Shown here: one piece after another, positions 2,656-52,878 of the stretch
Layout: every line of letters starts with the position of its first letter
Position numbering within the stretch: position 1 is the first letter of the stretch
Virus record (IMG/VR): IMGVR_UViG_3300025012_001675
Location: 1-52,966 of that record
Length of the DNA stretch: 52,966 nucleotides
From: a virus
Taxonomy: Duplodnaviria > Caudoviricetes
Reading direction: 5' to 3' (one strand)
Notes under the pieces: model-generated
What the model was told of the DNA's origin: nothing
Seen by the model: only the letters and a program-made list of their open reading frames with translations
Database searches by the model: none
Made by a program: the position numbers and the translations under genes

Positions 2656-3039
2656 TTACCGCAAGATTATTGATTTAGTTGCCACTTCAATAATATATCC
2701 ATCTGGATCTCTGAAATCTACGGTGTACGAGCTTCTATCGTTGTACTTCGATTCTAGGGGCCCTCGAATTATGTCTGCTTGAATTTTTAAGAGAAATCCA
2801 GCGACTTCATCTACGACATTCTGTGAAGCCACCAAAAAACATATGCGCCTTGGGCCTATAGTTTTTTCAGGCTTAACATTTTGTTCAACAAAGTATATTT
2901 TGGTTTCTCCGTTATTAAAAGCATTGGATTCAGTTTTATCCCATCCAATAAGTCCGAAGATTCTTTCATAAAACCCTATCGAACGCTCTAAATTAGAGAC
3001 CCAGAATTCTATATGTTTTATAGTCGCTTTATTTTCCAT
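2656..3039 (-). CDS. VOC/glyoxalase family protein
   Basis: IKHIEFWVSNLERSIGFY...FRDPDGYIIEV motifs; its ATG lies inside site copy 3. Confidence 0.85.
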   Translation of the reverse strand: MENKATIKHIEFWVSNLERSIGFYERIFGLIGWDKTESNAFNNGETKIYFVEQNVKPEKTIGPRRICFLVASQNVVDEVAGFLLKIQADIIRGPLESKYNDRSSYTVDFRDPDGYIIEVATKSIILR

Positions 3040-3076
3040 GACACTTTTTCCATTTCTTCTAGTGTAAAAAGTGCCA
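3029..3076. other. Left prophage junction (att site; SEC-C-end copy 3)
   Basis: Minus strand AAGAAATGGAAAAAGTGTCATGGAAAATAA (KKWKKCHGK*) is 24/30 identical to the right junction. Imperfect inverted arms 3039-3054 and 3061-3076 (13/16) surround a 6-bp spacer. Confidence 0.8.
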
Positions 3077-3217
3077 CAGGGGGTTCGGTGCTGGGGAAGC
3101 CACCCGTGCTTTGATTCTCGACTGCTCGTCTGCGAGGAGTCGCAACCGGCCCTTTTGCCTGTTGTGCTTTCCCCCTCGTAGACGAGTAGGCGTATTCGCT
3201 TTTCAATGATCCTATTG

Positions 3218-3454
3218 TCATTTTACTCGTCTGTCAGTTTTTGTCAACTTCTTGGAAGTGGATAAACTGTCGTGGTCTTTTACGGCCTCCCATACCCAAG
3301 TATGGCTTCGTTTGAAGCCATGTAATTCCTTGAGCATCTTCGCAACGGTGCGCGTGTCCAGCCCCTGCTGGTACAGGCGCACCGCTTTGTCTTTCATTTC
3401 CTGAACTTGTTTTTGTTTGAATGTTGATAGAGGCATAGTTGTGAATCCTTTCAC
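3218..3454 (-). CDS. Small HTH DNA-binding protein (possible excisionase/RDF)
   Basis: AVRLYQQGLDTRTVAKML...RSHTWVWEAV helix-turn-helix pattern; next to integrase and att. Start may be the ATG at 3436. Confidence 0.55.
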   Translation of the reverse strand: MKGFTTMPLSTFKQKQVQEMKDKAVRLYQQGLDTRTVAKMLKELHGFKRSHTWVWEAVKDHDSLSTSKKLTKTDRRVK

Positions 3455-3482
3455 TACTATTATATTCCCCTGTCAACTCCTG

Positions 3483-4601
3483 TCAAGTTACGTACTGTGG
3501 ATAAGGCACTTTAGTCTTGGATCGAGTTCGTTGCATGTAGAGCCCGTGCTTTGAGAAGTGCTCGGCCTGTCGCTGAAATTCATCGACGGTAATAGCTTCT
3601 TTGCCCTGGTTTTCGTTCCGGAGGAATGTGACCAGTCCTTGCAATGCATCATCGAATCCTGGGTCGCGTTCCCTTTCTCCGGCGAAGTCGTTTTTACTTT
3701 CCGTAAGGAAGAGGCGTGCGCGCTGTTCCAGCTCTTTACCGTGCATCATCGTGTAGATGGTCGTGCTTTGCACCGAAGCGTGGCCCAGAATATTCATGAC
3801 GTCTGCCGTCGATCCACCGCTCTTAATAATGTGATGTCCGCGGTGGTGCCGGAAGCTGTGGGCATTCATGTACGGCATTTTTGCTCTGTTGCAGTATCGT
3901 CGCAACATTTCGCCCACACCCTTAATCGAGAACCTGTCGCCACATTTCACGCTAGTCACCGATACGAAGAGTGCTCCCGGCTCTTCGAACTTCATGACTT
4001 TCGTAAGGTGATCTCGCTTCTTAAGCCAACGCACCAGATAGTCATTGGTATCGTCTGTCCAGAAGATCTCTCGGAATGGTCGGCGAGACTTTGCTTTCTC
4101 TGTTCGAATTATCGCTCTCTTTTCGTTCAGGTCTAGGTCATCCACGTTAAGGGAGCATACTTCTCCGTTTCGTGCTCCTGTGTCCCAAAGGAGGCCGAGA
4201 ATCGCTAGATTTCTAATGTGTCGTGGGTCGTTGGTGTCTTGCGGAATTGCCGCGACAAGCTGCTTATACTGTTCATCGCTCGCTACGCGAGGTAGTTTTG
4301 GTTCTTTGTCCGGGATCGGAATGAGTTCTTCGTCGATTACTTTGTAGCCTTGCAGCCGGTAGAATTCGAAGAATTTTCGGAGTGCCATGCACTTGCCGAC
4401 GAAGCTATTTCTGTCCCATCCGAGCTCTGCCATGCCATTCAGGTATTCCATCACGTTGCTCAGGGTGATGTGCTCAATGTCGGGGTTGCGGAGAAACAGG
4501 CAGAAGTTTCTCAGCTCGCGGTCGTAGCCGCGCACTGTTGTTTTTTTAACCTTGAACTGTCTCCAGTTCGAGAATTGATTTATTGCGTCTTTAGTTAGCA
4601 T
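3483..4601 (-). CDS. int: Tyrosine recombinase/integrase
   Basis: Catalytic R (TGARNGE), HSFRH, LGH and Y (STTIY), with an N-terminal SAM-like domain. Start set at MLTKD (4601); the longer track ORF runs through a structured leader. Confidence 0.92.
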   Translation of the reverse strand: MLTKDAINQFSNWRQFKVKKTTVRGYDRELRNFCLFLRNPDIEHITLSNVMEYLNGMAELGWDRNSFVGKCMALRKFFEFYRLQGYKVIDEELIPIPDKEPKLPRVASDEQYKQLVAAIPQDTNDPRHIRNLAILGLLWDTGARNGEVCSLNVDDLDLNEKRAIIRTEKAKSRRPFREIFWTDDTNDYLVRWLKKRDHLTKVMKFEEPGALFVSVTSVKCGDRFSIKGVGEMLRRYCNRAKMPYMNAHSFRHHRGHHIIKSGGSTADVMNILGHASVQSTTIYTMMHGKELEQRARLFLTESKNDFAGERERDPGFDDALQGLVTFLRNENQGKEAITVDEFQRQAEHFSKHGLYMQRTRSKTKVPYPQYVT

Positions 4602-4604
4602 ATA

Positions 4605-4810
4605 CACGAAACCCACCAGGATGCGACTCGTGGTGGGTTCGTGCCGTTTCCGTCCGCAGACCGAAGTCAGCGATCGGGACGCGAAGCGCCTTGCAAGGCG
4701 CGCATGCTTCAGTGTTATCCGGGTATCCCCGGCACATAAACCATGCAGAGCCATTTTAGCTCTTATGCGGCTTTCTGTCGAACCCCATTGTGTCGCATCC
4801 TCGACCTTGC
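4605..4810 (-). ncRNA. Highly structured 5' leader of integrase (candidate cis-regulatory RNA)
   Basis: Consecutive minus-strand hairpins with GCAA, UUCG and GAAA loops, and a stem CACGAACCCACCA...TGGTGGGTTTCGTG ending just before the ATG. Confidence 0.4.
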
Positions 4811-5053
4811 GGTCGATTGATCCCTATCGGGAACAATGAGATAGGTATTTTTAGTTAATGTGTTTGACGACAGACCAGTCGACACCAGTCTCCCGCTATG
4901 CCAAACGGAAAGATATTCCTTCGCGCCAAGGAAGTCAAACACGAAAGCCATAGTAATTGAATTTTATAAGTCATTGTCAGACAAGTCCAGATTTTGATCG
5001 CTTCAACCTTTATATTTTCATTATATTTTTATTTGTCAGACCAATTAAAACAC

Positions 5054-5274: not shown

Positions 5275-5850
5275 TTATTTTAAGGAATTTTTTATTTGTG
5301 CGAGTCCTTCTTCAATTTTTCTCACTCCTTCTTCGACCTGCGAAGGATGTGGTGTTTGCTGACCACCGGCCAACGCGACGATCTCGTCAATTATTTTTTT
5401 GTCGCGTGCCGGGCAATTCGGCTTCTTCGAAAATATTTCGAAGTGGCCGACGATGTGATTGCGGTCAATTGGTATCTGCCATCGTTGGCAAATCTCGCGA
5501 ATCAATGCTGCACTCGACTGCTTCATCGCATCTGTCCAAACATCATCCGGCTTTCCTTCGTGCTCGATGCCAACCGTGTAAAGATTAGGATTAATGTTCG
5601 ACTTTATCAGTTTCCAGACCGGCGCATCTACCCGGCCCGCATGCCAGGCAGTATCTTCTTCTTTCACATACTGATGGACTTCACCGGTTCGTCCGATGCC
5701 GTAGTGCGAGCTCACTAACGAAGCTGGATTTGCGAACCACGAATCGGTGCCGACGAGCGTGCCATCCATAATGTGAATGACCACTCCTTCCGGTCGATAA
5801 CCTTTTCGTCCGGCCCAGAAGTTAGGAGACTTTTTTTGAATGATATTCAT
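5275..5850 (-). CDS. Endolysin, N-acetylmuramoyl-L-alanine amidase (Amidase_2)
   Basis: VVIH, SSHY, AWHAG, GIEHEG, GH...CP motifs. Confidence 0.9.
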   Translation of the reverse strand: MNIIQKKSPNFWAGRKGYRPEGVVIHIMDGTLVGTDSWFANPASLVSSHYGIGRTGEVHQYVKEEDTAWHAGRVDAPVWKLIKSNINPNLYTVGIEHEGKPDDVWTDAMKQSSAALIREICQRWQIPIDRNHIVGHFEIFSKKPNCPARDKKIIDEIVALAGGQQTPHPSQVEEGVRKIEEGLAQIKNSLK

Positions 5851-5854
5851 GGCG

Positions 5855-6082
5855 TTATTTATTAAGGGTAATTAGCAAGTTAAGCAAGGCCGCGATAAGC
5901 CCGCCGACCGAGGCTGTAGTGACAATCCAGAAAAACCGCTTGAGCCAATCGACATCGGTGCCTACCCGCGTCAGTTTCCCATCGATGTGGGGCAGATGGT
6001 TGTTCTTGATCTCGTCGACGCTTTTTTCGAGGTTGTCGAGCCTCTTGTCCTGTATTTGGTTTTGGTAATTTGGGTGTTCCAT
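5855..6082 (-). CDS. Coiled-coil protein with C-terminal TM (XhlA-like lysis accessory)
   Basis: 75 aa, C-terminal hydrophobic helix, located in the lysis module. Confidence 0.55.
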   Translation of the reverse strand: MEHPNYQNQIQDKRLDNLEKSVDEIKNNHLPHIDGKLTRVGTDVDWLKRFFWIVTTASVGGLIAALLNLLITLNK

Positions 6083-6129
6083 AACGGATTTGCTTTTTGA
6101 ACCAAGTGTAAGCTACAACACAAGGGTCT

Positions 6130-6303
6130 ATGTCTACAGCTCAAAAAAGATTATTTGCGCTAATCGCGGTGCTTGCGGTGGTGAGTCTCGGCATCGGGCT
6201 TTATCTATTGTTGAATTTCGACCCGATGGTGCGAGATGCTGTTCAGTCAGACAAGCTCCGGGAAATGCGCCAGCAAATTGAACCGAAGCCTTCATTACCG
6301 TAA
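6130..6303 (+). CDS. Small single-TM membrane protein (57 aa), opposite strand
   Basis: Not in ORF track. MSTAQKRLFALIAVLAVVSLGIGLYLLLNFDPMVRDAVQSDKLREMRQQIEPKPSLP fills the gap between minus-strand genes. Confidence 0.55.
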   Translation: MSTAQKRLFALIAVLAVVSLGIGLYLLLNFDPMVRDAVQSDKLREMRQQIEPKPSLP

Positions 6304-9300
6304 TCCCTGCCTCATATGCTTCAGGTCTGTCTGCTGAAGTTCCTCAGTCGGGAACATTTGTCCGATCGTTGCGAGCGGGTCTTCTTTGCCTGTGCGAATT
6401 GAGCGGAGACTGTCTTTCGTCAGCTTCAGATTAAGCTGGGGTGTTGTTCCTTTCCGCTCCGCTTCCCCGACTTGTTCGTCGTAAACCGACCTTTGCAGCC
6501 TGGCAATGTCTTGCGGCTGGAATGTCACCGACGAACTTATTTTTTGCGCTTCCTGCGGATCATCTTGGGCGAGGTATGGCAGGATGTCCGGCAATATCTT
6601 TTCCGCTGATGCGTTCCAGTTTTCAATGATTGCCGTCGCAGTTTTTATATCGTTCTCCTCAATCGCCCGCTTAGCCTGCTCGCGCGCGGTGCTGTATCCG
6701 ACCACCGCTTCGTCTTTCAGATTCCATGCTTGATTTCGCTTCTCGCCTCCGGCGGATCGGTAGAATCGGCTGGCGGTGCTTTGCAGAATTTTTGCCGGGT
6801 CTATTGCTTCACGGCCGAAACCTCCAAGGAGGCCGCCAAGCCCATAGGCCATCTTCATTGGCGAAACACCGAGCGCTCGACCTACGACCACCGCCGCCTG
6901 CGGTGTTTTTTCGTCGTACTGCTCGGTTGGCGAAACTTGTTCGAGGCGTCTAGGAACAATCGGGCCTCCGGTGAAGAATGATTGATTCGTAGCAAGTTCT
7001 ATTGGAGTACGCAGAATCGGAGGCATCGCTCCGGAAAGGAATTGGGTCACGGATAGCTCTCCATCACGCGTGAATGGGATCGGAGCCAGTTGACTCATCC
7101 ATTCCAATGCGAGCTTGCTGAAGTTGCTCGGCTCGCCTTTGCGGACATAGTCGAGGGCGTACTCGATCGGGTTATAGAAGATCTGCCCGACGTCGCCTTT
7201 GGGAATCAGCACCATCTTAGGCACGCGATTGCCTTGCTCGTCCTTTTCTTCACCGACAATGATTGGGAAATAGGTATCTTTGATCCAGCGAGGCACATCT
7301 TCATAGAGGTCTGGAAAATTCAGGGAGTTCCAGAAGTATGTCGTCACGCCTGGCGCAACGATCAATGCGCCCGCTTTTGCTGAGGCTTTGACGGGACTTT
7401 CTTTAAACACGCGGGCTGTGTTGAGCAGTGCCTGCCATCGCGCATTCACAAATGGCACCCACATATTTATGATTCGCATCTCTTGACCGGCTTTGGCAAA
7501 ATCAATCGTAGCGTTGCGGGCTTCAAATGCTGCCTCGAAGCCAGTTGCTCCCCCCTTCAGCGCGCGCTTGTACACTCCAAGGCGAGGCGCGAGTTCTATG
7601 GCTTCAGCGAAATTGCTTATAAGATTGAAGGGGTTGACGACCGCTTTGGTTCGTTTCCACCATGTTGGCTCAAACAATTGTTTCTTCACGCCGCTGATCT
7701 CGCGTGCCCCCTGAATGAATCCACCAAAACCTCCGCCATCGCGACTGAATTCTTCCAGCAGTTTTGAGTCCCAGCCAAATGCCCCTTTGAGACCTTGAGC
7801 AAAACCAGTGATCCAATCGGCCGGGTTGAAGCCGTACTTCGAAGTCATGACTGCCATCTGTGCATCACGCACGGCGTTGGAAAGCGAGAACGGTATATAT
7901 AGTGTGGTCGCTCCTTTCCTGAACGCACCGGAGGTAAACTTTACAAAGTTTCCCAGCATGCCAGCTTCGACCTCATTCATCTGATGCATTGCCCAAGAAA
8001 GCTCTTCGGGTACAACCCACTTCGTGTTCTTTCCATCCACGAATACGCTGATGGAACCCCAGCCTTTTGGTACACGCGCATCTTTGGCCAGAGGCTGTAT
8101 AAGCTCTTTGGCTTCCGGCAACACTTCACGGATGTTGATGAGTTTGCGGGCTACGTCGTTGCGCTTGGCAAGGTTTACCGCGTTCGATAGTTTGTCGATG
8201 ATTGCTTCAAATGGGTCGCGGATTATTTTTTCCGTACCTTCAAGGCCTTTAACGATACCTTGCTTGCTTACCGAGAAGATCTCGCCGCCTTTCGGCAGAC
8301 TGTCTACGAATGCGGAGTCCGGCAAATAATCGAGGACTTGGAACGGAATCCAGTGTTTATTTTTTACTACGATCGAATTGTATGCCTGCTTCGATATAAG
8401 TCCCGATTCTGCAGCTGGCCGGAGTATCGCTTCGTCTGCCCATTTCTGTATCGCTTGTTCTGCCGCTTCAAATTGTTTGAATATGCCAGGGCCAACTTTT
8501 GTTTTCAGTTCGTCCATAGCTTGCTTTGCTGTATCGGCCGTAACTCCGGCAGGATTGGCAAATCCACGCTCGGCTCGTTCAAGAGCTCGGCGCGACAAAA
8601 CAAAGCGCGTGAAGTCGGCGCGTTCTTTTCTCAATGGTGAGATGACTTTTTGTAGATCGTTTAAGAAAGACTCCACCGTCCCCATGCGTCCCGCGTACAT
8701 TCGCGCCGCGGTGTATGCACTTGAGTTAATATCGATGGGCTTTCCGGCCATGTCGCTCACCATTTCCTCGAACCGTTTGATTGGTGCAAAGCGATCGCTG
8801 AATGCTTCGGTGAATTTTTTCGGTGCGCCCTTTATCCACTCAAGTAAATTTTTTGGCGTGCTTGTTTTTCCAACCATGCCGTCAATGGCTTCCAACGCAC
8901 TCCCTTTCGGGGAATCCGGAACTCCTGATAACGGCACCTCGGTGGATATGCGAGGAGGGGTTGAGGGTGGAGGTGTTAGCTCGTCAGCCCTTGGTTTTGG
9001 CGGCGCTACTTTCTTTCCTGCCTTTATAACAGGGTGTCCTTTTGAATTGACACTATCCAATGCGCCTTCCGCCGCTGAAGTGCGATTGGTGGGTGTGCCT
9101 GCTTCAATCTCTTTGATCGCCTGTTCGCGGGCTTTTATAAATTCTTCGCCTTGATCCGATACCCCTTTGTCTTTTTTTGCCAGATCAATAAGCTCTGATT
9201 CTCTTTTTTCAATATCCTTTTTCATTAGACCCAATAATTCGTCGCCCTCTTTACCTTCAACTGCTATTTCTAATTTTCGCTTAAGCTCAGGCAAGGACAG

Positions 9301-10008
9301 ATCGGCGTTTTCAAATTCCATCAGGTTACGCCCTTCTTTCTCAAAATAATTAACTGGCTTCACTGATTTGATAACTTCTTCCGCGGTCTTCACCGCTTCC
9401 GTGATCGGCTTCGCTTCTTTAGCAATGGCGATGCCTGCTTTTTCCACGAGCTTTTCCCCGCCTTCTTTAATAGCTTGTTCGGCAAGTTTCTTCCCGCCTT
9501 TTTCTACAATGAGCTTAGCGACGTCATCGCCGTATCTTTTGATGAGTTGTTCACCGAGTTCTTCCGCTACTTTCTTCTTCGGAATGCCGGGGACGATATC
9601 AAGTGCGGTCAAGGCAAAACCGAGTGGCAGCCCATACTTCTTTGATGCTTTCTCGCTGCCGCCGAATGTTTTAATTGTTTCTTCTCCGGTTCCGCGTATG
9701 TCCTTAATAGGCTTATCGCCCATAAGGAACTTTTCCAGCTTCGGAGCCACTCCTGTGCCAGGTATAAATTCTTTTTGATCCTGAAGCGAGAGCATCGCCG
9801 AAGCCGCTGCGCGATTGGGGGCACGAAGAACATCTTTGCCAAAATTCAAGACCGCCATTCCGACTGTCTTCGTTGCCCCCGGCAATTCGCGCACAAAGTC
9901 CCGCACGCGTACTTGGTCAGGTACGGGTGCGAAAAAGTCGCCGATAGTCTTCTTTGTTTTCTCGGCCGCTTTCTTGAAAGGTGATGTTATTTTGTTCCAG
10001 AAATTCAT
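6295..10008 (-). CDS. Large internal-virion/ejection protein with LPD38-like C-terminal region
   Basis: ~1237 aa; C-terminal TNQSFFTGGPIVP...PTEQYDEKT...LGVSPMK pattern recalls large polyvalent phage proteins; sits at the end of the virion module. Confidence 0.6.
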   Translation of the reverse strand: MNFWNKITSPFKKAAEKTKKTIGDFFAPVPDQVRVRDFVRELPGATKTVGMAVLNFGKDVLRAPNRAAASAMLSLQDQKEFIPGTGVAPKLEKFLMGDKPIKDIRGTGEETIKTFGGSEKASKKYGLPLGFALTALDIVPGIPKKKVAEELGEQLIKRYGDDVAKLIVEKGGKKLAEQAIKEGGEKLVEKAGIAIAKEAKPITEAVKTAEEVIKSVKPVNYFEKEGRNLMEFENADLSLPELKRKLEIAVEGKEGDELLGLMKKDIEKRESELIDLAKKDKGVSDQGEEFIKAREQAIKEIEAGTPTNRTSAAEGALDSVNSKGHPVIKAGKKVAPPKPRADELTPPPSTPPRISTEVPLSGVPDSPKGSALEAIDGMVGKTSTPKNLLEWIKGAPKKFTEAFSDRFAPIKRFEEMVSDMAGKPIDINSSAYTAARMYAGRMGTVESFLNDLQKVISPLRKERADFTRFVLSRRALERAERGFANPAGVTADTAKQAMDELKTKVGPGIFKQFEAAEQAIQKWADEAILRPAAESGLISKQAYNSIVVKNKHWIPFQVLDYLPDSAFVDSLPKGGEIFSVSKQGIVKGLEGTEKIIRDPFEAIIDKLSNAVNLAKRNDVARKLINIREVLPEAKELIQPLAKDARVPKGWGSISVFVDGKNTKWVVPEELSWAMHQMNEVEAGMLGNFVKFTSGAFRKGATTLYIPFSLSNAVRDAQMAVMTSKYGFNPADWITGFAQGLKGAFGWDSKLLEEFSRDGGGFGGFIQGAREISGVKKQLFEPTWWKRTKAVVNPFNLISNFAEAIELAPRLGVYKRALKGGATGFEAAFEARNATIDFAKAGQEMRIINMWVPFVNARWQALLNTARVFKESPVKASAKAGALIVAPGVTTYFWNSLNFPDLYEDVPRWIKDTYFPIIVGEEKDEQGNRVPKMVLIPKGDVGQIFYNPIEYALDYVRKGEPSNFSKLALEWMSQLAPIPFTRDGELSVTQFLSGAMPPILRTPIELATNQSFFTGGPIVPRRLEQVSPTEQYDEKTPQAAVVVGRALGVSPMKMAYGLGGLLGGFGREAIDPAKILQSTASRFYRSAGGEKRNQAWNLKDEAVVGYSTAREQAKRAIEENDIKTATAIIENWNASAEKILPDILPYLAQDDPQEAQKISSSVTFQPQDIARLQRSVYDEQVGEAERKGTTPQLNLKLTKDSLRSIRTGKEDPLATIGQMFPTEELQQTDLKHMRQGLR

Positions 10009-10015
10009 AGTAGTT

Positions 10016-11110
10016 TTAGACTCCAATACGGAAGAGCCGTCCGAGGAATCCGCCAACGCCTCCTGCGGTTTTAATTCGCCATTCGTCGTCAATTATTTCT
10101 GAGGCCGACTTCTTTGAATCAGTAAACTGGACGCTTCCATATACCTGCTTCAGCTGTTCAGCGTTGTATCCTTCTTTCCAGGCGTCGCGGACTTCTCGTC
10201 TGAAAGTGCTCTCGGCAGTCGTGCCGGATGCCTGGGCCGGAGCTGACGCTTTTTCAGGGGACTGTTTTCTGAGGTATGCGATTTCAGATTCAAGCTGAAC
10301 GGCCAAGTCGCCGCTATAGCCCAATCGAGTCGGATCATTGATGCCTTGACTCATCAAGCGTTCAGCCGTGGCTCTTAGAGATGGGTCGGGCTCCAAGCCT
10401 TGATCTATTCGGGCAGAGAACCTTTCACCAGCCGTGCTGTTGCCGTTCCCGCTGGATGCCTCTTTTGCCCTTTGATCGGCTTCCTGGAGCTTGAGCATAA
10501 ATTCCGCCTCCCAATGCTGATCGTCGCTCTCGCGGTCCAGTTCGCTTCGAAGAGTGTCATTGTAATCGCTCATCTGCTTTGTCAGACTGGCTAGGTTGTA
10601 TTTAAGCTCGTCGACTTCGCGCTCTTTTTCACCCGTCTCAGCCGCCACCTTTTTGGTTACTTCGTCGAGCGTGCTGTTGTATTCCCCCGCAAGACTGTTT
10701 CGCTCGTCCACATAGTTATTGATCGTGGAATTTGCCAGCCGTTCAATCTCCGAAGACTCGCCGGTAATTGTTGCCGCCGAATAGTACGGATTGCGTCGAG
10801 TCTTGCTGATTGACTCGTCGCGAGTTCCTTTTTCACCCGCAATTTTTGAATCGAGATTTGCGATTTTTGTTTTAATGTCCCCAAGGCCGCGCGTGTTGTA
10901 CTCTTGATCGTAGCGGGTCGTGTAATAATTCTTGAGCGCGCTCTGCGCTGAATCCAATTTTTGCTGAGCCGTGCCGATCTGAGTCTGAAGAGACGACAAA
11001 TCGTAGCCGGCCGAGTCTGTTCCATCCGGTGCGTTTGCCGATGTCGGCCTGGCGAAACTTTTGCGAAGATCTGCAAACTGCTTTTCAAATTGTGTCCAGT
11101 CAATAGCCAT
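10016..11110 (-). CDS. Coiled-coil virion (probable ejection) protein
   Basis: 364 aa, helical/coiled-coil, in the structural module. Confidence 0.45.
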   Translation of the reverse strand: MAIDWTQFEKQFADLRKSFARPTSANAPDGTDSAGYDLSSLQTQIGTAQQKLDSAQSALKNYYTTRYDQEYNTRGLGDIKTKIANLDSKIAGEKGTRDESISKTRRNPYYSAATITGESSEIERLANSTINNYVDERNSLAGEYNSTLDEVTKKVAAETGEKEREVDELKYNLASLTKQMSDYNDTLRSELDRESDDQHWEAEFMLKLQEADQRAKEASSGNGNSTAGERFSARIDQGLEPDPSLRATAERLMSQGINDPTRLGYSGDLAVQLESEIAYLRKQSPEKASAPAQASGTTAESTFRREVRDAWKEGYNAEQLKQVYGSVQFTDSKKSASEIIDDEWRIKTAGGVGGFLGRLFRIGV

Positions 11111-11114
11111 AGAT

Positions 11115-11327
11115 TTATATATTTGGTTTGGCTTCCGTGATCCGGCCAGTTTTCAAGTCAATGTCATGCTTTCTGTTCGGATCGAGTCTGTACTTGGGAA
11201 AGCGACTCATGATGTATTGCTGTTTTTGCACTTCTAAAGCCTGCGTGATGAGCTGGTGTTGATGAATAAGCTCCTGCCGTTTGCGGAGTTCTTCAAGGTC
11301 TGTTTTGTCTAATTTTTTTGTAAACAT
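11115..11327 (-). CDS. Hypothetical phage protein
   Basis: 70-aa ORF in operon context. Confidence 0.55.
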   Translation of the reverse strand: MFTKKLDKTDLEELRKRQELIHQHQLITQALEVQKQQYIMSRFPKYRLDPNRKHDIDLKTGRITEAKPNI

Positions 11328-11370
11328 GGTATGGATGCCAATTGTTTTTTAATTGATCGACCTTTTATTG

Positions 11371-12480: not shown

Positions 12481-12484
12481 AGCT

Positions 12485-41991: not shown

Positions 41992-41997
41992 AGTGTG

Positions 41998-43060: not shown

Positions 43061-43099
43061 ACCATTCATCCATCCACGACACAACATTGACCAAGGTTT

Positions 43100-45387: not shown

Positions 45388-45426
45388 ATTGCTTTACTTT
45401 TTCTTTATTATTTATTCATCTTTTCT

Positions 45427-46698
45427 TTAACCTTTTACCTTGACCTTCTCCCAGCGATTGCGAATCACATCGCACCAACGTGGATCAAGCTCAAGCAGAT
45501 AGCAGGTGCGTTCTAGTTTGTTCGCGGCGAACAGGGTGCTTCCTGATCCGCCGAAGAAGTCGACCACGACGTGACCGACTCGGCTTGAGTTCTTTATGGC
45601 GCGCATAATAAGCCACTCCGGTTTCTCAGTCGGGTGAGCCATCTTGGTAATTGCTTTGCGTGGCATATCCCATACGTCGCTCTCGTTGTTATCGCCGTAG
45701 AAGAAGTGTCTCTCCCCCTTCTTCCAGCCATACATAAGTGGTTGCGCTTTGGTCTTGCCTTTGCTCCGCTTCGCTTTCATGACCTGTTCGTATTGTTTTT
45801 TGTAGTCTCCCCAGCCAATAGCAAAGGACGGTTTAACCCATACGATTGTCGAGGAAAATTCAAACCCGGCGTTCAGCATTTCGTAGTACCACAGTGGATA
45901 GCTGGTATAGCCCGTGCAGACGTACATCGTTGCACCTGGCTTCAGAATTTCATGGTAGTTGGCGAATACTTTTTCGCTGAAGGCTTCGAAGTCTTCTTGG
46001 CTCTGCTGATCGCCGAGAATCTTTCCCTGCTCGGTTGGAAACTTCCCGCGCTTTTCGTGACTGACGTGAGCCACGTTGTAAGGAGGATCGGTAAAAACCA
46101 TATCCACCTTGGTTGTGCCGAGCAATTTCTTGATGTCTTCAATCTTGGTTGCGTCTCCGCACATAAGCCGGTGTCGGCCGAGCTTATAAACTTCACCGTA
46201 TTTCGACACAGGTTTTTTTATTTCCTCGTATTCTTCTTCGGCGGTTTTATCTTCCTCATCCGGCTCTTCGAGCATTTGGCTGTCGAGGAGATTGCTTATC
46301 TCCACTTCATTGAAGCCAGTGAGGGTCAGGTCAAAGTCGGAGTGATTGAGCTCGACCATGAGTTCGGCCAGCCTCTCGTCATTCCAATCGCGCCGTTGAG
46401 CAATCTTGTTTAAGGCAAGACTCAGTGCTTTTTCTTCCTTCTCCGGCATGTCTACCAAGTCTACATTCTCTTTCGGTATTGTTTCCCACCCCAACTCTTT
46501 GAGGGCCATGACAGTCATGTTGCCGCCGATAATGAAGCCGTCGCGTCCCTTGCTGGTGTTGACCGTGATGAGTCCGCGCAATCCAAACCTTTCAATCGAT
46601 CGTTTTAATGCATCGATGTCTTCGCGCTTTATCTCGCGCGGGTTGTAGGCCGGATGCTTGAGGTCTGTAATTTTTATTGTCTTCGTATTTTTTTCCAT
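45427..46698 (-). CDS. ParB-N domain plus N4/N6 DNA methyltransferase
   Basis: YNPR ParB-like N-terminus; GDAT, TDPPYN, HPTEKP, DFFGGSGST. Confidence 0.9.
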   Translation of the reverse strand: MEKNTKTIKITDLKHPAYNPREIKREDIDALKRSIERFGLRGLITVNTSKGRDGFIIGGNMTVMALKELGWETIPKENVDLVDMPEKEEKALSLALNKIAQRRDWNDERLAELMVELNHSDFDLTLTGFNEVEISNLLDSQMLEEPDEEDKTAEEEYEEIKKPVSKYGEVYKLGRHRLMCGDATKIEDIKKLLGTTKVDMVFTDPPYNVAHVSHEKRGKFPTEQGKILGDQQSQEDFEAFSEKVFANYHEILKPGATMYVCTGYTSYPLWYYEMLNAGFEFSSTIVWVKPSFAIGWGDYKKQYEQVMKAKRSKGKTKAQPLMYGWKKGERHFFYGDNNESDVWDMPRKAITKMAHPTEKPEWLIMRAIKNSSRVGHVVVDFFGGSGSTLFAANKLERTCYLLELDPRWCDVIRNRWEKVKVKG

Positions 46699-46913
46699 AG
46701 GTTTATGAAGAATAGTTTGATGCGAATCCGGACCCTTCTTCGAAGCGGGAGCGCAAGGTATGCCTGCGTTGCTATCTCGCGCTCGACCATTTCAATGCGC
46801 CGCTTTTGAGCTTCAGCCAGCAGGTCGGCCGGAATGTATGCACCGCCTATAAGCCGCGGCCTATTCTTTCTTCGTGCCAGCGGGTTCTTTTTTGGGTTGT
46901 CGAGTCTGGTCAT
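46674..46913 (-). CDS. Hypothetical basic protein
   Basis: Overlapping ORF in operon. Confidence 0.4.
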   Translation of the reverse strand: MTRLDNPKKNPLARRKNRPRLIGGAYIPADLLAEAQKRRIEMVEREIATQAYLALPLRRRVRIRIKLFFINLWKKIRRQ

Positions 46914-47157
46914 GTTCTTCTTCAATTAATTTTTTAGTTGTTAAGATGGCGTGTTCGACTTTTTCGATCCGTTCCTGATATTCCACCACCAATTCTTTCT
47001 TGGTCTTTTGGCCCTCCATGTTGAATGGGGTCAGGCGTTGGATCACCACGTCATCGTCGCCGCGGTCTTCGAGGTTGCGTACCGCAATCTCCAGCCGCAC
47101 TTTTTCTTCTAGCAATGAGTCATGAATTGACTCAAGAGTTTCTAGTCTTGTTTTCAT
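46861..47157 (-). CDS. Hypothetical coiled-coil protein
   Basis: 98 aa, ATGA-coupled to the upstream gene. Confidence 0.55.
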   Translation of the reverse strand: MKTRLETLESIHDSLLEEKVRLEIAVRNLEDRGDDDVVIQRLTPFNMEGQKTKKELVVEYQERIEKVEHAILTTKKLIEEEHDQTRQPKKEPAGTKKE

Positions 47158-47459
47158 ATCGTTATAATTTCGAACTTGTCCGTCTTTTCATTCCATCGCC
47201 AATATTCCTTTGTAGCGTTTACTGGCTTCGGGAATGCAAGCATTCGCTCTTGGTCTGCCCTCGACCTGGAACTGAAACGCTCCGAGCTAACCTGAATAAA
47301 GCGAATTTCTTTTTTGCCGACAGCCATCAAGTCCCAGCACCCGAATAGGTCTTGCTGTTGGAACTTTGCGCGCCGAGCCTTTTCGATCCAGTAGCCTTCC
47401 TGAGCGAGAAGGGCCTGGGCTTTTTGTTCAATGATTTTTCCTTTTTGGGTACGGTTCAT
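47154..47459 (-). CDS. Holliday-junction-resolvase-like PD-(D/E)XK nuclease
   Basis: KG...E...L..EGY...DLMA...FIQV pattern of Hjc-like proteins. Confidence 0.65.
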   Translation of the reverse strand: MNRTQKGKIIEQKAQALLAQEGYWIEKARRAKFQQQDLFGCWDLMAVGKKEIRFIQVSSERFSSRSRADQERMLAFPKPVNATKEYWRWNEKTDKFEIITI

Positions 47460-47525
47460 AGCTGTTTGAGTTAACGGGTTTTGTGTCTTTGTCCCGTTCG
47501 TAGCGGCGGGGTCGCCGATGTGTTG

Positions 47526-47807
47526 TTAGGCCGAGGCCGACTCCGATCCCGCATTGCGGGGCAGATCCGGGACATTGAGCCGAACACTGACACGAGCTTT
47601 GCTTCTGCGGCCGACGAGGTTCATGACCGAGCGGATCGCTTTAATTGCGCGTCCCTCTTTGCCGATCACGATTCCCGCATCGCCCTCGTCAAGCTTCGCC
47701 GAGAGGAGCACGCCCATCTCGTCTACGTGCCTTGTCACTTCCACCTGTTCAGGGTGGTTGACTATTGCCCGTAGAATCGTTTCAAGTAGATTCTGATCTT
47801 GTTCCAT
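47526..47807 (-). CDS. khpA: KH-domain RNA-binding protein (KhpA family)
   Basis: AIVNHPEQV...DAGIVIGKEGRAIKAIRSV with GxxG loop. Confidence 0.85.
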   Translation of the reverse strand: MEQDQNLLETILRAIVNHPEQVEVTRHVDEMGVLLSAKLDEGDAGIVIGKEGRAIKAIRSVMNLVGRRSKARVSVRLNVPDLPRNAGSESASA

Positions 47808-47811
47808 AGCT

Positions 47812-48840
47812 TTAATTTTTCTTTATAATTTCTTTATCTTTTCTTGACCGCCTGTCGACCTCAGACGGAATCTTTGCAGCCAGAACGCCGTTGGGGTTTC
47901 CCCCTAACGCACGCCCCAGCCGCTTATTTGCGATAGCCACATATGCCGGGTTGAGATCTATGCCAACGAAACTCCGGCCCAGCGAACACGCAACCACCGC
48001 AGTCGTGCCACTCCCGATAAAGGGATCGAGCACGATTCCTCCTTCCGGACAACCAGCCCTTATTGGAATTTCCACAAGTGATGGCGGAAAGGTGGCGAAG
48101 TGAGAATCTTTCTGCGGCCTAGTGTTGATTGACCAGACGCACCGTTTATTGCGTCCGGAAATATTCGGCCTCATGTTTCTGTTTCGGTAATTTTTTTGAC
48201 CAGTGCCCTCATCCCACTTGCTCTTTCCAGTGGCATCCAGCCGTGTTCCGCTCCAGCGATTAAGTGGTTTGGTATAGGGGTCGTATTGTTTTTCGAAGCT
48301 GTAGGTGCGCGATTTCACGAAGAAAAAAAGCTTTTCAAAATCAACGGTAAATCTGTCTTTGACCGATTGCGGCATGGCGTTCGGTTTGTGCCATATGATT
48401 TCGTTCCGGAGAATCCAGCCTCGATCACACATTGCTATTGCAAAGCGAGCCGGTATCTGCAGGAGACACTTCTCCATTCCTTTCACCCCGGCTTTGCCTT
48501 TTTCCTGCCAGCCGCAGTTGTAATGCGTGCCGCGGTTTGTGGCTTGCTTGCCGGTTCGCACACCGGACCCGCTCCCCGTACCGTAGGTATCGCCCATGTT
48601 TATCCAGCACGTTCCGGCAGGCTTGAGCACTCGCTTCGCCTCATCGAAGATTTCACAAAGTTTTTCGATGTATTGTTGAAATGTAGTCTCCAGTCCGATC
48701 TGCCGGTCGACGCGATAATCACGCAACGCCCAATATGGCGGCGAGGTCATCACGCAATCGATGCTTTCGCTCGGCAGTCTGCGAAGAGTTTCTTTTGCAT
48801 CGCCGAGCAGTATTTGATTTTTGTATTGCTCGACTTTCAT
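47812..48840 (-). CDS. N4/N6 site-specific DNA methyltransferase
   Basis: TSPPYW, IIWHKPN, HFATFP, LDPFIGSGTT; start MKVEQ. Confidence 0.9.
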   Translation of the reverse strand: MKVEQYKNQILLGDAKETLRRLPSESIDCVMTSPPYWALRDYRVDRQIGLETTFQQYIEKLCEIFDEAKRVLKPAGTCWINMGDTYGTGSGSGVRTGKQATNRGTHYNCGWQEKGKAGVKGMEKCLLQIPARFAIAMCDRGWILRNEIIWHKPNAMPQSVKDRFTVDFEKLFFFVKSRTYSFEKQYDPYTKPLNRWSGTRLDATGKSKWDEGTGQKNYRNRNMRPNISGRNKRCVWSINTRPQKDSHFATFPPSLVEIPIRAGCPEGGIVLDPFIGSGTTAVVACSLGRSFVGIDLNPAYVAIANKRLGRALGGNPNGVLAAKIPSEVDRRSRKDKEIIKKN

Positions 48841-49802
48841 AAGCTGTGTGTTGGTGATCGGAAATCCTGTGTCATTGCGAATGATTCTTTGAGTTTCTTC
48901 AGCGCCTCGACCATTGCCTGCGCTTCTCCACGGACTTCCTCCGGTTCGCGTCGGCTGTACTGCAGCGCGATTCGCTCTAGCGTGTTGTAGAATCCGTACT
49001 CTTTGAGGCTCGCCTGAATAAAATCGTCGATGACCTCTTTGCATAAAGCCGCACCGATTGTCGGTTTCATCTCTCGCTTGTTTTGCAAAAACCACACGAT
49101 CTCCAGCTCAAGTTGAAATTCAGTGAGATGGCGGAGGGCGTGTTTGAGCAGATTGCCGTCTTTGAACTTCACGAAGATCGGCCTGGTATGCCGAATACCC
49201 CAGGTGAGCTGAGAGAATTTCCCGAAGAAGTAGCGTGTTGGCAGGATTGGTTTATCCACAGGCTTATCCACATCCTTTTTAAATTCTTGAATCAAGCTCG
49301 CTTGTCCGAAGGACTTATCTTTTGTAAAACCGGTTTCTTTTGTAGCCCGAAAATTCTTCGCACGAAGATTTTTCGGGGGAGGTGAAAAGTTTGAGGTTTT
49401 TCCCGCCCCCGAACTTACTTCGGGGGTAGGTTGCTGGGGCCGTTTAAGACTCAGGCGGTAGAAGATTTTTCCTCCGCACTTCATGCGCTTCTGCGGCGAG
49501 TCTAGGAGTACGCCCGCTTCGTCGTGGGCCTGGATAATTCTCAGCTCGTCTACCAATCGCTTGAGTGAGTTTTGAATAGCGCGATCACTGCGGTTTATTT
49601 TCTTCATCAGCTGACCCTGACTGATCCAATCTTTCTCTTTGCGGCGTTTTGTCTCCGGGTCTTCAATCCAGCCCAACGTCTGGTCCGCAACGACAAGAAG
49701 AATCCTCAGCTCTACATCGCTCAGAAGTGGCATCCACTCCCGAATAATGAGGTGCGGGATTTGAGTCGAGTTTGGAATTATTGAGGTTATTTCGTTTTCC
49801 AT
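48837..49802 (-). CDS. Phage replication initiator (N-terminal wHTH, O-like)
   Basis: PNSTQIP...LSDVELRILL...TLGW...DWISQGQL pattern. Confidence 0.7.
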   Translation of the reverse strand: MENEITSIIPNSTQIPHLIIREWMPLLSDVELRILLVVADQTLGWIEDPETKRRKEKDWISQGQLMKKINRSDRAIQNSLKRLVDELRIIQAHDEAGVLLDSPQKRMKCGGKIFYRLSLKRPQQPTPEVSSGAGKTSNFSPPPKNLRAKNFRATKETGFTKDKSFGQASLIQEFKKDVDKPVDKPILPTRYFFGKFSQLTWGIRHTRPIFVKFKDGNLLKHALRHLTEFQLELEIVWFLQNKREMKPTIGAALCKEVIDDFIQASLKEYGFYNTLERIALQYSRREPEEVRGEAQAMVEALKKLKESFAMTQDFRSPTHSL

Positions 49803-49880
49803 GTTTTTGTTTGACGAAAGGGAAACAGCTCCCCGATTTCTGGCCTGACGCTCTCGCGGTCAGGACAGAATCGAGAGCCG

Positions 49881-50156
49881 TTAGAAGTAAATCGGGAAGT
49901 GAATTCGGATATCTTCCTCTGCTTCCTCTTGCTGGTGTAGGTCGTCCGGGTCAGGGTTGACTCGGCCGGTTCCACTGCAATGACTGCATGGCTTGCTGGC
50001 TTTTATGTCGCCTCGTTCCATTGCTGTAGGAATTTCTCCTACGCCGTCGCATTCTTCGCAGTCACGCTTGTCTCCGGCGAGGATATACTCCCGGATTTTT
50101 GCTTCCCTTAGTTCTTCCGGAAGCTCATTCCATTCGAGATTGAATGCGTATTTCAT
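49881..50156 (-). CDS. DnaJ-type zinc-finger protein
   Basis: CEECDGVG and CSHCSGTG (CxxCxGxG) repeats. Confidence 0.65.
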   Translation of the reverse strand: MKYAFNLEWNELPEELREAKIREYILAGDKRDCEECDGVGEIPTAMERGDIKASKPCSHCSGTGRVNPDPDDLHQQEEAEEDIRIHFPIYF

Positions 50157-50158
50157 GG

Positions 50159-50533
50159 TTAGTAGTTGGCGACGATTGTGCATGGCTCTCCGGTTTCTTT
50201 CTCTTTCCGTTCGCAGAGATCCACGAAGTCCACAAAGCTTTGCTTCACTTTGTCGATTTTCTTTTGATCCGTTTGCTTATAAATCGTGCGCTCTCGTTGT
50301 TCGACCACTTCGAGAGTTCTCGGCAATCGTTCGCGTAGAAGCTTTGCCGGAATTTTTGCTTCGTTATTTTTCCCAAAGGCTTCGCGGCACAGGTATCGCG
50401 TTGCGAAGTGCTCTCCCCGGTACGCTTCACGCAAGTACCCGACATTGCCGTGCTCCACTGAGAAGCCAGTGATCTGCTTTTTCTTTTGCTTTGGCGTCTG
50501 GTTTTTCCAGCGCGCGTAGATGTCTATTCCCAT
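50159..50533 (-). CDS. Hypothetical protein
   Basis: MGIDIY...GYLREAY; in early operon. Confidence 0.55.
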   Translation of the reverse strand: MGIDIYARWKNQTPKQKKKQITGFSVEHGNVGYLREAYRGEHFATRYLCREAFGKNNEAKIPAKLLRERLPRTLEVVEQRERTIYKQTDQKKIDKVKQSFVDFVDLCERKEKETGEPCTIVANY

Positions 50534-50616
50534 AAGATGTTTGATCCTTTGTCGGCTTCCGATCTCTGACCTCACGCTTCCGCGATGAGGGCAGAGTCGG
50601 AAGCTAACGCCGGTGG

Positions 50617-51867
50617 TTACTTTTTCTTAGTTCCTTTCTTTGCTGGGACCGGAGCGGGTTTCGACTTTTCTTCGGTGTGAGAGTGCCCATTCCCATTTCC
50701 GTTTCCATTTCCGTTGCCATTAGGAGGTAGCTTTGAGACTAGGCGTTTGCGCCCATCCGGGAGTTCTACAATTTCCGCGATGCCCATCGACACGGCTTCG
50801 AGGCCCAGCTTCTTGTAGCCTTCGGCGAGGCGTTCGGGCCGGAGCTCTCCGATCGCTGTCATTGAGGTCGTTCCGAATACTCGATCCAGTAGGTCGAGTT
50901 TCATCTGCTTGTCTCGACCGACCGCGCCGGGTGCGATGCGGATAAGGAGACCGTCCAGTTCCTCTATCCATTTGTCGCGCTCTCTGCGCCATTCGGCTTT
51001 TTCCTCCTCGGTTCGGAAGAGCAGTCCGGTGTCTGATTCAGGCATGACTACCGTGTCTCTCGGAATTGGATCGGTGAGCAGGGCTTCTACTATCGGCGCA
51101 AAGTTCTCATAGGTCGGGTTTTTATAAGTCCGGCCGTCGAGCAGGGTGCTTCGGTCTTTGATGATCGTGGCTTCGCGCCAGACCTTCTTGTCGTCTCCGA
51201 GCACTTCTTCGAAGCGTTCCATGAGGACGAGCATGTCCGGCTCGTAAGCGGTTTCGCCTTCGACCTTCATCTTGATTCCGGACTTGAAGATTTCGCGTTT
51301 GCCGGTGTCGGCGTTCTTTTCGTTGTCGTACTCGTACCCAGCGCGGCCGGTGAAGATCGCGTGGTACCCGTCACTCACGAATGGGTCGGAGAATTCTCGC
51401 TTCCATGTCGGCTTGATGATTCCCCAGTCCTGGAATTCCAGGCGTGTCCGGTGAACTTTTTCTGCGTAGGATTGGAGGAACCCCTCCCATACGTGCGAGA
51501 TTGAATCGATGAGAAGGATGTCCGATATTCCGGATCGCATCTTTTCCATCGTCTGCCGTAGGTCGGCCAGTGACTTCGATTCGCGGACGAGCACTTCGAT
51601 TCCGGCTTCCGCGAAAAGCGGCTTGAGGAATTTTGATGCTTGTTCGGTGTCGAAGATTACGATCGGTTTTTTCGAACCTATCCGCTTGTGCAGTCCGACC
51701 GCGACCTGCGCTGCGGTGAATGTTTTGCCGCTACCCGCGAAGCCTTGGAAGGCCGCTTTGAAGTAGGGCTTGGTGTTGCCGATCGGCGCGAAGAAGCTAT
51801 CTGTCATTTCCTTCGCCGTTTCTCTCGGCCGCACCCTCGTTGCTGTTGGTTGTGCTTGGTTGTTCAT
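50617..51867 (-). CDS. AAA ATPase (AAA_24/Sak4-like recombination protein)
   Basis: GFAGSGKT Walker A, IFDTE, LIDSISHVW, YEPD. Confidence 0.8.
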   Translation of the reverse strand: MNNQAQPTATRVRPRETAKEMTDSFFAPIGNTKPYFKAAFQGFAGSGKTFTAAQVAVGLHKRIGSKKPIVIFDTEQASKFLKPLFAEAGIEVLVRESKSLADLRQTMEKMRSGISDILLIDSISHVWEGFLQSYAEKVHRTRLEFQDWGIIKPTWKREFSDPFVSDGYHAIFTGRAGYEYDNEKNADTGKREIFKSGIKMKVEGETAYEPDMLVLMERFEEVLGDDKKVWREATIIKDRSTLLDGRTYKNPTYENFAPIVEALLTDPIPRDTVVMPESDTGLLFRTEEEKAEWRRERDKWIEELDGLLIRIAPGAVGRDKQMKLDLLDRVFGTTSMTAIGELRPERLAEGYKKLGLEAVSMGIAEIVELPDGRKRLVSKLPPNGNGNGNGNGNGHSHTEEKSKPAPVPAKKGTKKK

Positions 51868-52120
51868 AATTGTTATTTGACTTGCCCGAAGGTGGATTGA
51901 TATAATTAATTTGCTGATCATCTCCCTTCGGGGAGATTTTCTTTTTCTGAGCGGCCCGGTTCGACTTCCGGAGCCGTATTTCTTTGTCCAGGAACTCCAC
52001 ATCGATGCGGTCACCTATCTTCAATTTGTAGCGATCCGTAAGCCATTTCCCTTCAAGGATCACTGCTGGAGTTCCGTATCTGCGGTAGGTGACTGCGCGG
52101 GTCGGTTTGAGATCTCTCAT
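51797..52120 (-). CDS. SymE/AbrB-fold small protein
   Basis: PAVILEGKWL...LKIGDRIDVEF...IRL resembles the SymE core; start at the ATG at 52120. Confidence 0.5.
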   Translation of the reverse strand: MRDLKPTRAVTYRRYGTPAVILEGKWLTDRYKLKIGDRIDVEFLDKEIRLRKSNRAAQKKKISPKGDDQQINYINPPSGKSNNNYEQPSTTNSNEGAAERNGEGNDR

Positions 52121-52359
52121 GTGAAGAGTCTCAACACCATATCCGCTTGTGCCCGCCAGAAAGGACTCCAGTGTCCGGTCTGGCCCTCCACCATAATTTG
52201 GGCGAGCGATGCGAAGAGGATTAGCATGTCGAGGGTCACCAGGAAGGCGATGGCTTCGGATGCTATGGTGAAAGTTTTCTTCGCTTGCTCGTAAGTGATT
52301 GCGTTCATACGTTTTGTCGCTTGTCGGGGTCGTTGATGTAGCTCCGTTTGTTGTCGCAT
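52117..52359 (-). CDS. Small membrane protein
   Basis: One hydrophobic helix; ATGA-coupled to the next gene. Confidence 0.45.
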   Translation of the reverse strand: MRQQTELHQRPRQATKRMNAITYEQAKKTFTIASEAIAFLVTLDMLILFASLAQIMVEGQTGHWSPFWRAQADMVLRLFT

Positions 52360-52405
52360 CCAAGTCTCTGACTAGACTTCGATTAGGCTACCCATCGACC
52401 CGTGG

Positions 52406-52666
52406 TCATTTGAGTTCTTTCTTGATCTCACCGAGCAGGGCGTCGTTGATCTGATCGAAGGCGTAGCCCATGAGCTCCGATTCGATTTCTGATCCTTCAT
52501 CCATGAAGTCCGTCGTCAGCTTTCCAGTCAGGTTGCCGACCTCATCGGCGATATCGTCTTCGAGGTCTTTAGCCAAACTTTCGGCGACGGCCCGGATGCG
52601 CTCCCGCATGACCTTTCCGCGAACTTCTTCGCATATGTTTTTCTTCACTTGTGTGATGTTTTTCAT
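52406..52666 (-). CDS. Hypothetical acidic protein
   Basis: Start MKNITQ; first gene inside the right end. Confidence 0.5.
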   Translation of the reverse strand: MKNITQVKKNICEEVRGKVMRERIRAVAESLAKDLEDDIADEVGNLTGKLTTDFMDEGSEIESELMGYAFDQINDALLGEIKKELK

Positions 52667-52769
52667 ACTCGGTGTTGTGTCAACTTTTGTAAGCTTGCGG
52701 ACTCTGGTGCCGCGTACCTCGACCTTCGACGAGCAGTATTTATTTTTTCGAGATCGGGATTTTGGCATA

Positions 52770-52802
52770 GAAAAACCCCGTGCTCATCGCACGGGGTTTT
52801 TC
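52770..52802 (-). terminator. Terminator just inside the right prophage end
   Basis: GAAAAACCCCGTGC-TCATC-GCACGGGGTTTTTC. Confidence 0.75.
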
Positions 52803-52848
52803 CCTTTATCCGCAGTTTGCGGACGGAAACGGCTCTATTTGTCAGCTC

Positions 52849-52878
52849 CTACTTCCCATGACACTTCTTGTATTTCTT
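52849..52878. other. Right prophage junction (att site; SEC-C-end copy 4)
   Basis: Minus strand AAGAAATACAAGAAGTGTCATGGGAAGTAG (KKYKKCHGK*); shares AAGAAAT and AAGTGTCATGG with the left junction. Confidence 0.8.

Follow-up and report, generated by a model that had tools for sequence, protein, structure and literature searches.

Evidence for integration of a temperate Patescibacteria phage at the SEC-C zinc-motif codons that end a host protein gene

The viral record IMGVR_UViG_3300025012_001675 (Caudoviricetes), analyzed here over its 52,966 nucleotides (the window), is read from about 3041 to 52866 as a temperate SU10-like phage of 49.8 kb that is integrated in a Patescibacteria host, at the codons of a SEC-C zinc motif that close a host protein gene. 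We assign this explanation as a whole a probability of about 85%. Two observations carry its wider part: one phage species was found at secA and, in an unrelated host, at a non-homologous gene for a C39-like peptidase that ends in a SEC-C tail, and across its family the phage integrase is linked to a SEC-C tail-like site. An initial annotation of the window, made from its letters, had proposed a prophage with a tyrosine integrase next to its left attachment site (attL), inserted in a SEC-C coding end and supplying a recoded replacement end. The integrase domain (PF00589) and the phage gene content support the first half of that proposal, and the reading frames at both junctions, together with the recipient gene on an independent contig (L120), support the second.

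The two ends of the prophage carry a direct repeat of 30 nt on the minus strand, at 3029–3058 (attL) and 52849–52878 (attR), in which 24 of 30 bases are identical, as the initial annotation had stated. attR encodes KKYKKCHGK and a stop, closing an open frame that ends [20 protein letters not shown], and attL encodes KKWKKCHGK and a stop directly after a TAG stop codon of the phage. With position 1 set at the first A of the 7-mer AAGAAAT (3058 in attL or 52878 in attR), the six differences lie at positions 8, 9, 12, 24, 27 and 30: two are in the W/Y codon and four are synonymous (AAA/AAG, GGA/GGG, AAA/AAG and TAA/TAG), so the earlier description of them as mostly synonymous holds. The longest exact identity between the two junctions is 11 nt. 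In a repeat listing the pair appears as family D4 (3030–3058 and 52850–52878, 83% identity), with a weaker third copy at 38319–38347 (76%) that is taken as chance. A 24/30 repeat alone is within chance for 53 kb, for which the listing gives at least 60 families; the junction repeat is considered real because it is placed at the borders of a GC shift and of the phage genes, in frame with the SEC-C motif, and because it is homologous to the attachment sites of 11 related elements. GC content is 0.40 in the host flank and 0.44–0.53 inside the prophage. The features of a temperate phage at a gene 3′ end were found together: the integrase gene adjoins the junction, the direct repeat marks both ends and the recipient gene remains open.

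The window holds only 88 host bases beyond attR (52879–52966, minus strand), the 3′ part of the recipient gene. An exact 50-nt search returned one metagenome contig, L120, which overlaps the right end of the window and runs 1.4 kb further. Along it lie, in this order, the 3′ end of secA, whose own SEC-C tail is intact, then genes of 137 aa and of 240 aa (the latter C39/SEC-C), attR and phage. In this host secA is not the recipient; the phage lies in the 240-aa gene, 1.2 kb further downstream, which encodes a C39-like peptidase ending in a SEC-C tail. SEC-C (PF02810; cut-off 20.4 bits) scores 39.9 bits in the recipient gene and 43.3 bits in the neighbouring secA end; the SEC-C match of the recipient is clear and its DUF3335/C39-like match weak. 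The SecA domains (DEAD, preprotein-binding, P-loop and wing/scaffold) were not found in the 240-aa product, whereas they are present in the recipient genes of three related prophages (record L089 and genomes G506 and G774), whose SEC-C scores are 35.5–41.9 bits. Homologues of the recipient form a family of approximately 235-aa C39 + SEC-C proteins, one of them source-named Parcubacteria. Searches for the gene gave no match in the 31 genomes of the order to which the Patescibacteria genome G001 belongs, and none other than to the tail itself in five genomes with related prophages. Two family members, P0009 and P0010, lack the SEC-C tail, and P0009 ends in VPKCCGK, as if the motif had been deleted down to its last codons.

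The integrase gene (3483–4754, minus strand) encodes a two-domain, Xer-like tyrosine recombinase matching PF00589 and PF02899, the former with 95 bits against a cut-off of 27.1, and its start is probably a conserved ATG at 4601–4599, giving 372 aa. In an alignment of six integrase sequences R195, H299, R302, H325 and Y334 are invariant; we take these to be the catalytic residues. The equivalog cut-offs of the Xer models are not reached (XerA 131–142 against 220, XerD 128–130 against 329.6 and XerC 122–125 against 335 bits), and the nearest solved structure is XerA 5hxy; by these comparisons the enzyme appears Xer-like in architecture only. Pfam finds only the SAM-like and catalytic domains, and relatives of 301–314 aa have no room for a further, arm-binding domain. 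Repeated AGACGAG motifs are seen in the phage arm. Between the integrase gene and attL lies a small gene (3218–3454, minus strand) with weak matches of the helix-turn-helix type, preceded by a promoter matching the consensus at 12/12 bases (3486–3459, minus strand); homologues occupy the same place in L001, L003, L004, L006 and L124. It is a candidate excisionase or regulator.

The association of this integrase with SEC-C tails extends through its relatives. A search of the viral collection with the integrase gave seven related records; two of them end at or inside the integrase gene, and all of the other five have a tail-like site 250–650 nt downstream of it. Among 401 sampled genomes of the class, six encode an integrase homologue, and in each of the six a tail-like sequence follows downstream (four recognized by pattern and two by reading). 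Three of those five viral records are un-integrated, two of them with direct terminal repeats, and display the phage attachment site (attP) as integrase gene, small gene, promoter, tail copy, stop, terminator and early genes. Four integrated cases allow the recipient to be read: the window, where it is the C39/SEC-C gene, and the L089 record, G506 and G774, where it is full-length secA; in L086 and L088 only about 110 host bases are visible. In a further record, L087 (G433), bases 1–110 contain no open frame upstream of the right-hand att block and look like another phage arm, resembling by eye the phage-arm side of an L006-type attP at 11/18 bases; this hints at a tandem element next to that prophage. 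A search with the AAA_24 protein of the early region gave 34 loci, with a SEC-C tail upstream in only four (L086–L089); the other 30, which have other or no integration modules or lie in truncated records, were dropped. A search with the 120-aa early protein gave no relatives in the viral collection.

The closest relative is a prophage of about 49.6 kb inside an 886-kb contig of G506, where both junctions are present. It is collinear with the window at 84–97% identity over 37,533 of 49,820 bases (75%), and some 98–99% identical in the first hundreds of bases on either side of the att block. It sits at the end of full-length secA. A C39/SEC-C gene is lacking from the G506 host, and the tail itself is the only part of its DNA that matches the 3-kb flank of the window. 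The initial annotation had suggested that a motif target would open several genes and hosts to the phage, and this pair, near-identical phages at two different genes with no detectable flank similarity between the hosts, bears that suggestion out. In G506 and G432 the substitute end alters the protein, from CCGK-stop to CHGK-stop and from CCGKQ-stop to CHGA-stop, respectively.

Comparison of near-identical phages narrows the position of strand exchange within the block. attR of the window and of G506 differ at positions −14, −7, −1, 3, 6, 9 and 12 and at none from 13 to 150; attR of the near-identical pair L086 and L087 differ at 6, 8, 18 and upstream and at none from 19 to 121; attL of G506 and G712 share every base between −12 and 18 and diverge beyond that. 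In attR, therefore, host sequence extends at least as far as 12 (18 for L086 and L087) and phage sequence starts no later than 19, which places the exchange at approximately 13–18. The exchange would quite probably occur at AAGTGT (3041–3046 in attL and 52861–52866 in attR), the Lys-Cys codons of the motif. With this placement attL would consist of the original host end, His-Gly-Lys-stop (3029–3040), the crossover and the phage's untranslated tail copy (3047–3058), and attR of the phage-supplied His-Gly-Lys-stop (52849–52860), the crossover and host codons (52867–52878). The phage would therefore supply only His-Gly-Lys-stop, with three synonymous changes. The initial annotation had treated W versus Y as a change to the host protein; the codon for W is instead most likely part of the phage's untranslated arm. 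This assignment fits three observations: W is absent at this tail position from all six recipient homologues that carry the tail (P0003–P0008), it recurs with the same phage end beside a different flank, and the phage-arm copies are sloppy (KKWKKC, KKYKKY and Q-stop-YKKC), while the substitute ends encode His-Gly-x-stop in eight of eight cases. The different flank was seen in contigs of 6.2 and 25.1 kb from runs X15 and X17, which match phage 3028–3800 with three to four differences and whose leftward sequence is unlike that of the window; they contain a second copy of 3028–3046, 113–131 nt away, and represent either the same phage in another context or a tandem array of tail remnants.

The initial annotation had placed the crossover in the 7-mer AAGAAAT itself (ATTTCTT on the plus strand). 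In that case the host gene would originally have encoded KKWKKCHGK-stop, and the phage would have supplied Tyr-Lys-Lys-Cys-His-Gly-Lys-stop, including two of the four zinc ligands. The 7-mer is the left-most identical block in the window, and in the window, G432 and G433 similarity extends no further left than it; an overlap of 7 bp is typical of tyrosine integrases; and the phage polymorphisms that this placement requires (positions 9 and 12) are no more numerous than those for the exchange at 13–18 (positions 8 and 9). Against it, the two 7-mers of a single prophage differ in G506 (positions 3 and 6, two of seven bases) and in G774 (position 3), positions 1–12 of attR are host-dependent, whereas the window and G506 agree at every one of the 138 bases that follow, and the W codon recurs in X15 and X17 and is absent from the target homologues. 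We consider an exchange in the 7-mer unlikely. Given the shift of the crossover, the bacterial (attB) and phage attachment strings predicted with it probably contain errors in the five bases that follow the 7-mer. A further part of that model concerned imperfect inverted arms at 3039–3054 and 3061–3076 around a 6-nt spacer, proposed as core sites of the integrase. The arms exist, with 13/16 complementary bases, but as core-type sites they were rejected, because related elements differ in how far the arms lie from the shared block: 14 nt in the window, G506 and G432 and 5–6 nt in G433–G436.

The integrase might also be specific to secA, with the window representing an off-target event or a secA tail captured within an island of secA-tail cassettes. 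The recipient is just 1.2 kb downstream of secA, and secA is the recipient in three of the four readable cases. In a related Patescibacteria genome (G001, locus L007) the secA tail at 3366 is followed by three decayed tail copies at 3666, 4565 and 5132, each with three to four mismatches and placed at gene borders in the 2.6 kb between secA and a glyoxalase gene, against an expectation of 0.4 hits per shuffled 53-kb window. With its small genes (cupin, NUDIX, deoxyribosyltransferase-like and MazG-like), L007 3366–5160 resembles a cassette island built up on the secA tail. The C39 + SEC-C proteins nevertheless form a separate family, of which at least six homologues have a SEC-C motif that is complete and diverse, and the tail of the recipient is therefore no leftover of secA; even were the window an exceptional event, the site used would be defined by the motif and not by the gene. 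We hold secA specificity to be a little less likely again than exchange in the 7-mer. An assembly chimera, in which a free phage genome was joined to host contigs through a short shared tail, would account for a single metagenome-derived viral record with shared sequence exactly at both joins. The longest junction identity (11 nt) is too short to mislead an assembler, attR recurs on the independent contig L120, a contig from run X1 reads across attL, and a collinear prophage with both junctions lies inside the G506 contig, leaving this explanation very improbable.

Several observations weigh against integration at SEC-C codons with exchange at 13–18. No block of at least six identical bases is common to attL and attR of all five prophages, and attL and attR mismatch at position 15 in G774, 17 in G433 and 18 in G432; either a single mismatch is tolerated in an exchange at 13–18 or the differences arose by later mutation. 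An exchange there also needs the window phage to differ from G506 and G712 at positions 8–9 (GG against AT), which amounts to two substitutions within 18 bases against a divergence of approximately 1% in the flanks. The host's own, unoccupied secA tail fits the phage site by eye about as well as the site used. Neither an empty-site allele nor an excised circle of the window phage was found in the metagenome scan or in matched run contigs: the only metagenome match to the site in the exact 50-nt search is the occupied site, and the run contigs that match the window show attL or another flank and no attB, the parts they leave uncovered being uninformative. An exact-match scan of the viral collection with the phage arm found no free genome of the window phage, and at E ≤ 1e-40 the integrase homologue was not found in the first sample, 401 genomes of the phylum. 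Finally, the promoter and terminator described below are consensus or fold predictions. The junctions, the gene identities, the tie between integrase and site across the family and the presence of one phage at two genes are shown directly, whereas we infer the exact crossover position, the promoter activity and the present ability to excise.

Both phage arms contain putative transcription signals. On the attR side a predicted intrinsic terminator lies at 52770–52802 (minus strand), a 15-pair hairpin with a U-run that a simple terminator scan missed and that folding revealed (z = −5.4, none of 200 shuffles as stable); equivalents, GC-rich hairpins plus a T-run located some 75 nt or less from the stop, occur in eight of eight arms. 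The initial annotation had held that a terminator at 52770 would cut off downstream units; the hairpin is real and the remark right, although a promoter on the attL side may compensate. This outward promoter-like site (3220–3247, minus strand, TTGACA-16-TAAAAT, 11/12) points across attL into the glyoxalase gene of the host. All six phage arms examined have an equivalent, a sigma-70-like match at 10–11/12 bases located 47–161 nt upstream of the block, with scores reached by 0–59 of 1,000 shuffles. Between the promoter and the att block (3059–3219, minus strand), the arm can form a long hairpin (CTCGTCT.CGAGG ... CCTCG.AGACGAG) that is common to G432 and G433, with weak covariation (z = −2.3, three sequences, two compensatory pairs); it could be a set of integrase or excisionase binding sites or part of the outward transcript. 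Upstream of the conserved integrase start, about 390 nt (4602–4990, minus strand) are predicted to form a structured leader (z = −5.5, none of 100 shuffles). Leader bases 4658–4643 are a perfect complement at the RNA level of 52818–52833 (16 nt), in the attR arm between stop and terminator, a match found in none of 300 shuffles and kept in G506 (16 nt) and G432 (14 nt), and not clearly present in five more distant relatives. This pairing could provide antisense control of the integrase or reflect a shared protein-binding site. Rfam has no family for the att arms or the integrase leader.

Taken together, the integrase would recombine a phage site of approximately 30 nt with the last ten SEC-C codons of a host gene (K-K-Y/F-K-K-C-H/C-G-x-stop). 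The host gene would keep its own codons through the third zinc ligand, and the phage would donate His-Gly-Lys-stop and the terminator, so that in the window host the protein sequence would be unchanged. The original end that this displaces would be left at attL, preceded by the untranslated phage copy of the tail. With the prophage in place, the terminator would stop the host-gene transcript just inside the prophage, separating the glyoxalase gene from the gene upstream. The outward promoter in the phage arm could then drive the glyoxalase gene, whose start codon lies inside the displaced tail (ATG, 3039–3037), and may replace its lost upstream promoter.

The host left flank (1–3028, GC 0.40, minus strand, annotated with Pfam) encodes a PD-(D/E)XK nuclease fragment (2–607), a 445-aa protein (658–1995), a deaminase (2119–2607) and the glyoxalase/VOC protein (2656–3039). 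The last is 69% identical to a homologue from a Patescibacteria metagenome-assembled genome, in which secA is found 2.6 kb upstream of it, and 26–36% identical to the next best matches. Among roughly 390 integrase homologues, all seven source names that give an organism are Patescibacteria lineages, and judged from these similarities the host is a Patescibacteria (Parcubacteria-type) bacterium from groundwater. In bases 1–300 of L120 the secA tail of this host, unoccupied, matches the phage-arm copy of the window by eye at 16/18 bases, and the bases just upstream encode G-S-N instead of G-S-G; the tail may be a secondary site or may be excluded by this difference.

Nearly all prophage genes lie on the minus strand. 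Lysis and virion genes (5275–22705, minus) encode an amidase, an LPD38 giant protein, a tail fibre, SU10-type adaptor and major capsid proteins and the portal. Just downstream of the portal gene is a LOOT RNA (22997–23121, minus; RF03000, 79.4 bits against a gathering score of 46.4), the sole Rfam match. A diversity-generating retroelement follows, with a variable repeat (23289–23419) at the 3′ end of a 324-aa gene (23287–24261, minus), a template repeat (24659–24789), bAvd (24840–25187, minus) and a reverse transcriptase (25138–26241, plus strand); 22 of the 24 mismatches between the repeats are at template adenines. The cargo between portal and terminase (26422–43495, minus) includes two C5 methylases, a HaeII-type restriction enzyme, Vsr, a SoFic-like Fic protein, two histidine kinases, an OmpR-type regulator, YceG/MltG and unknown genes. 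The large (43311–44852, minus) and small (44824–45387, minus) terminase subunits open a block that extends to the early genes (43311–52768, minus), with N6/N4 methylases, a KH protein, a RepO-like protein and an AAA_24/Sak4-like protein (50617–52014, minus). That the 26–43-kb cargo might be host DNA lying between two pieces of prophage was considered and rejected: 34133–47867 is collinear in the G506 prophage (84–92% identity), in which 23175–34132, including the retroelement region, is replaced, and G432 likewise has 8.5 kb between portal and terminase. The kinase, regulator and YceG part is kept in the G506 prophage and is therefore stable phage cargo.

The mechanism is of a known kind, integration at a gene 3′ end with a substitute end. 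The lambdoid phage 21 and the element e14 reportedly integrate in the 3′ part of icd in Escherichia coli and bring a substitute gene end. As in those elements, the 3′ end of a protein gene is targeted here and the phage site holds a diverged copy of that end with largely synonymous differences; unlike them, the shared block is only about 30 nt and is set by a zinc-motif peptide that ends non-homologous genes, the host is a member of the Patescibacteria and the integrase is Xer-like without a recognizable arm-binding domain. Xer recombinases (XerA, XerC/D and XerH) and the elements that exploit them use dif-like sites of 28–30 bp. The present enzyme resembles them as a two-domain tyrosine recombinase with a SAM-like N-terminal domain and a simple site of about 30 nt with a short central region, but it scores far below the Xer model cut-offs, is phage-encoded and adjoins its own site instead of acting at dif. 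Repeated use of a gene end that leaves arrays of old sites, seen here in the L007 copies and the second copy of X15 and X17, recalls the tandem accretion of cis-mobilizable and integrative and conjugative elements that is said to occur at the 3′ end of fda in Streptococcus, although what moves in the present case is an entire phage of 50 kb, and elements accrete at a SEC-C tail. The integrase of mycobacteriophage Ms6 is reported to target the T-loops of tRNA-Ala genes (PMC1762012). The site of the window phage is similar to those of integrases that use tRNA or tmRNA 3′ ends in being a short conserved sequence, present in several genes and hosts, whose 3′ end is restored by the phage, but its target is the codons of a protein motif, conserved at the amino-acid level with varying third codon positions. 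New here are the site, zinc-motif codons common to non-homologous genes including the essential secA, the host group and the use of two genes by one phage. No description of secA or SEC-C as a phage attachment site appeared in the passages returned by full-text literature searches.

Little is known of lysogeny among phages of the candidate phyla radiation (Patescibacteria), and here an integrase family is tied to a defined site. The window is a plain example of a portable landing pad furnished by a conserved short peptide motif rather than by a conserved gene or RNA. We tentatively propose, as a possibility that we rate somewhat below even odds, that a large family of Xer-like integrases in Patescibacteria phages reads the codons of a zinc-finger peptide and not one gene, such that a single species may lysogenize unrelated hosts at secA or at other SEC-C genes, with the secA tail as the main accretion point for mobile DNA. 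Under this proposal the site would form a three-part insulating module in which the phage contributes the substitute end (His-Gly-x-stop), the terminator and the outward promoter; in the subgroup of the window, the 14–16-nt complement of the integrase leader would lie in the new 3′ untranslated region of the host gene, whose transcript could report the integration state or the activity of the secA locus to the integrase. SEC-C docking would also account for the variable gene islands downstream of secA, and the secA/SEC-C tail rule would offer a way to find prophages, satellites and cassette islands in Patescibacteria genomes.

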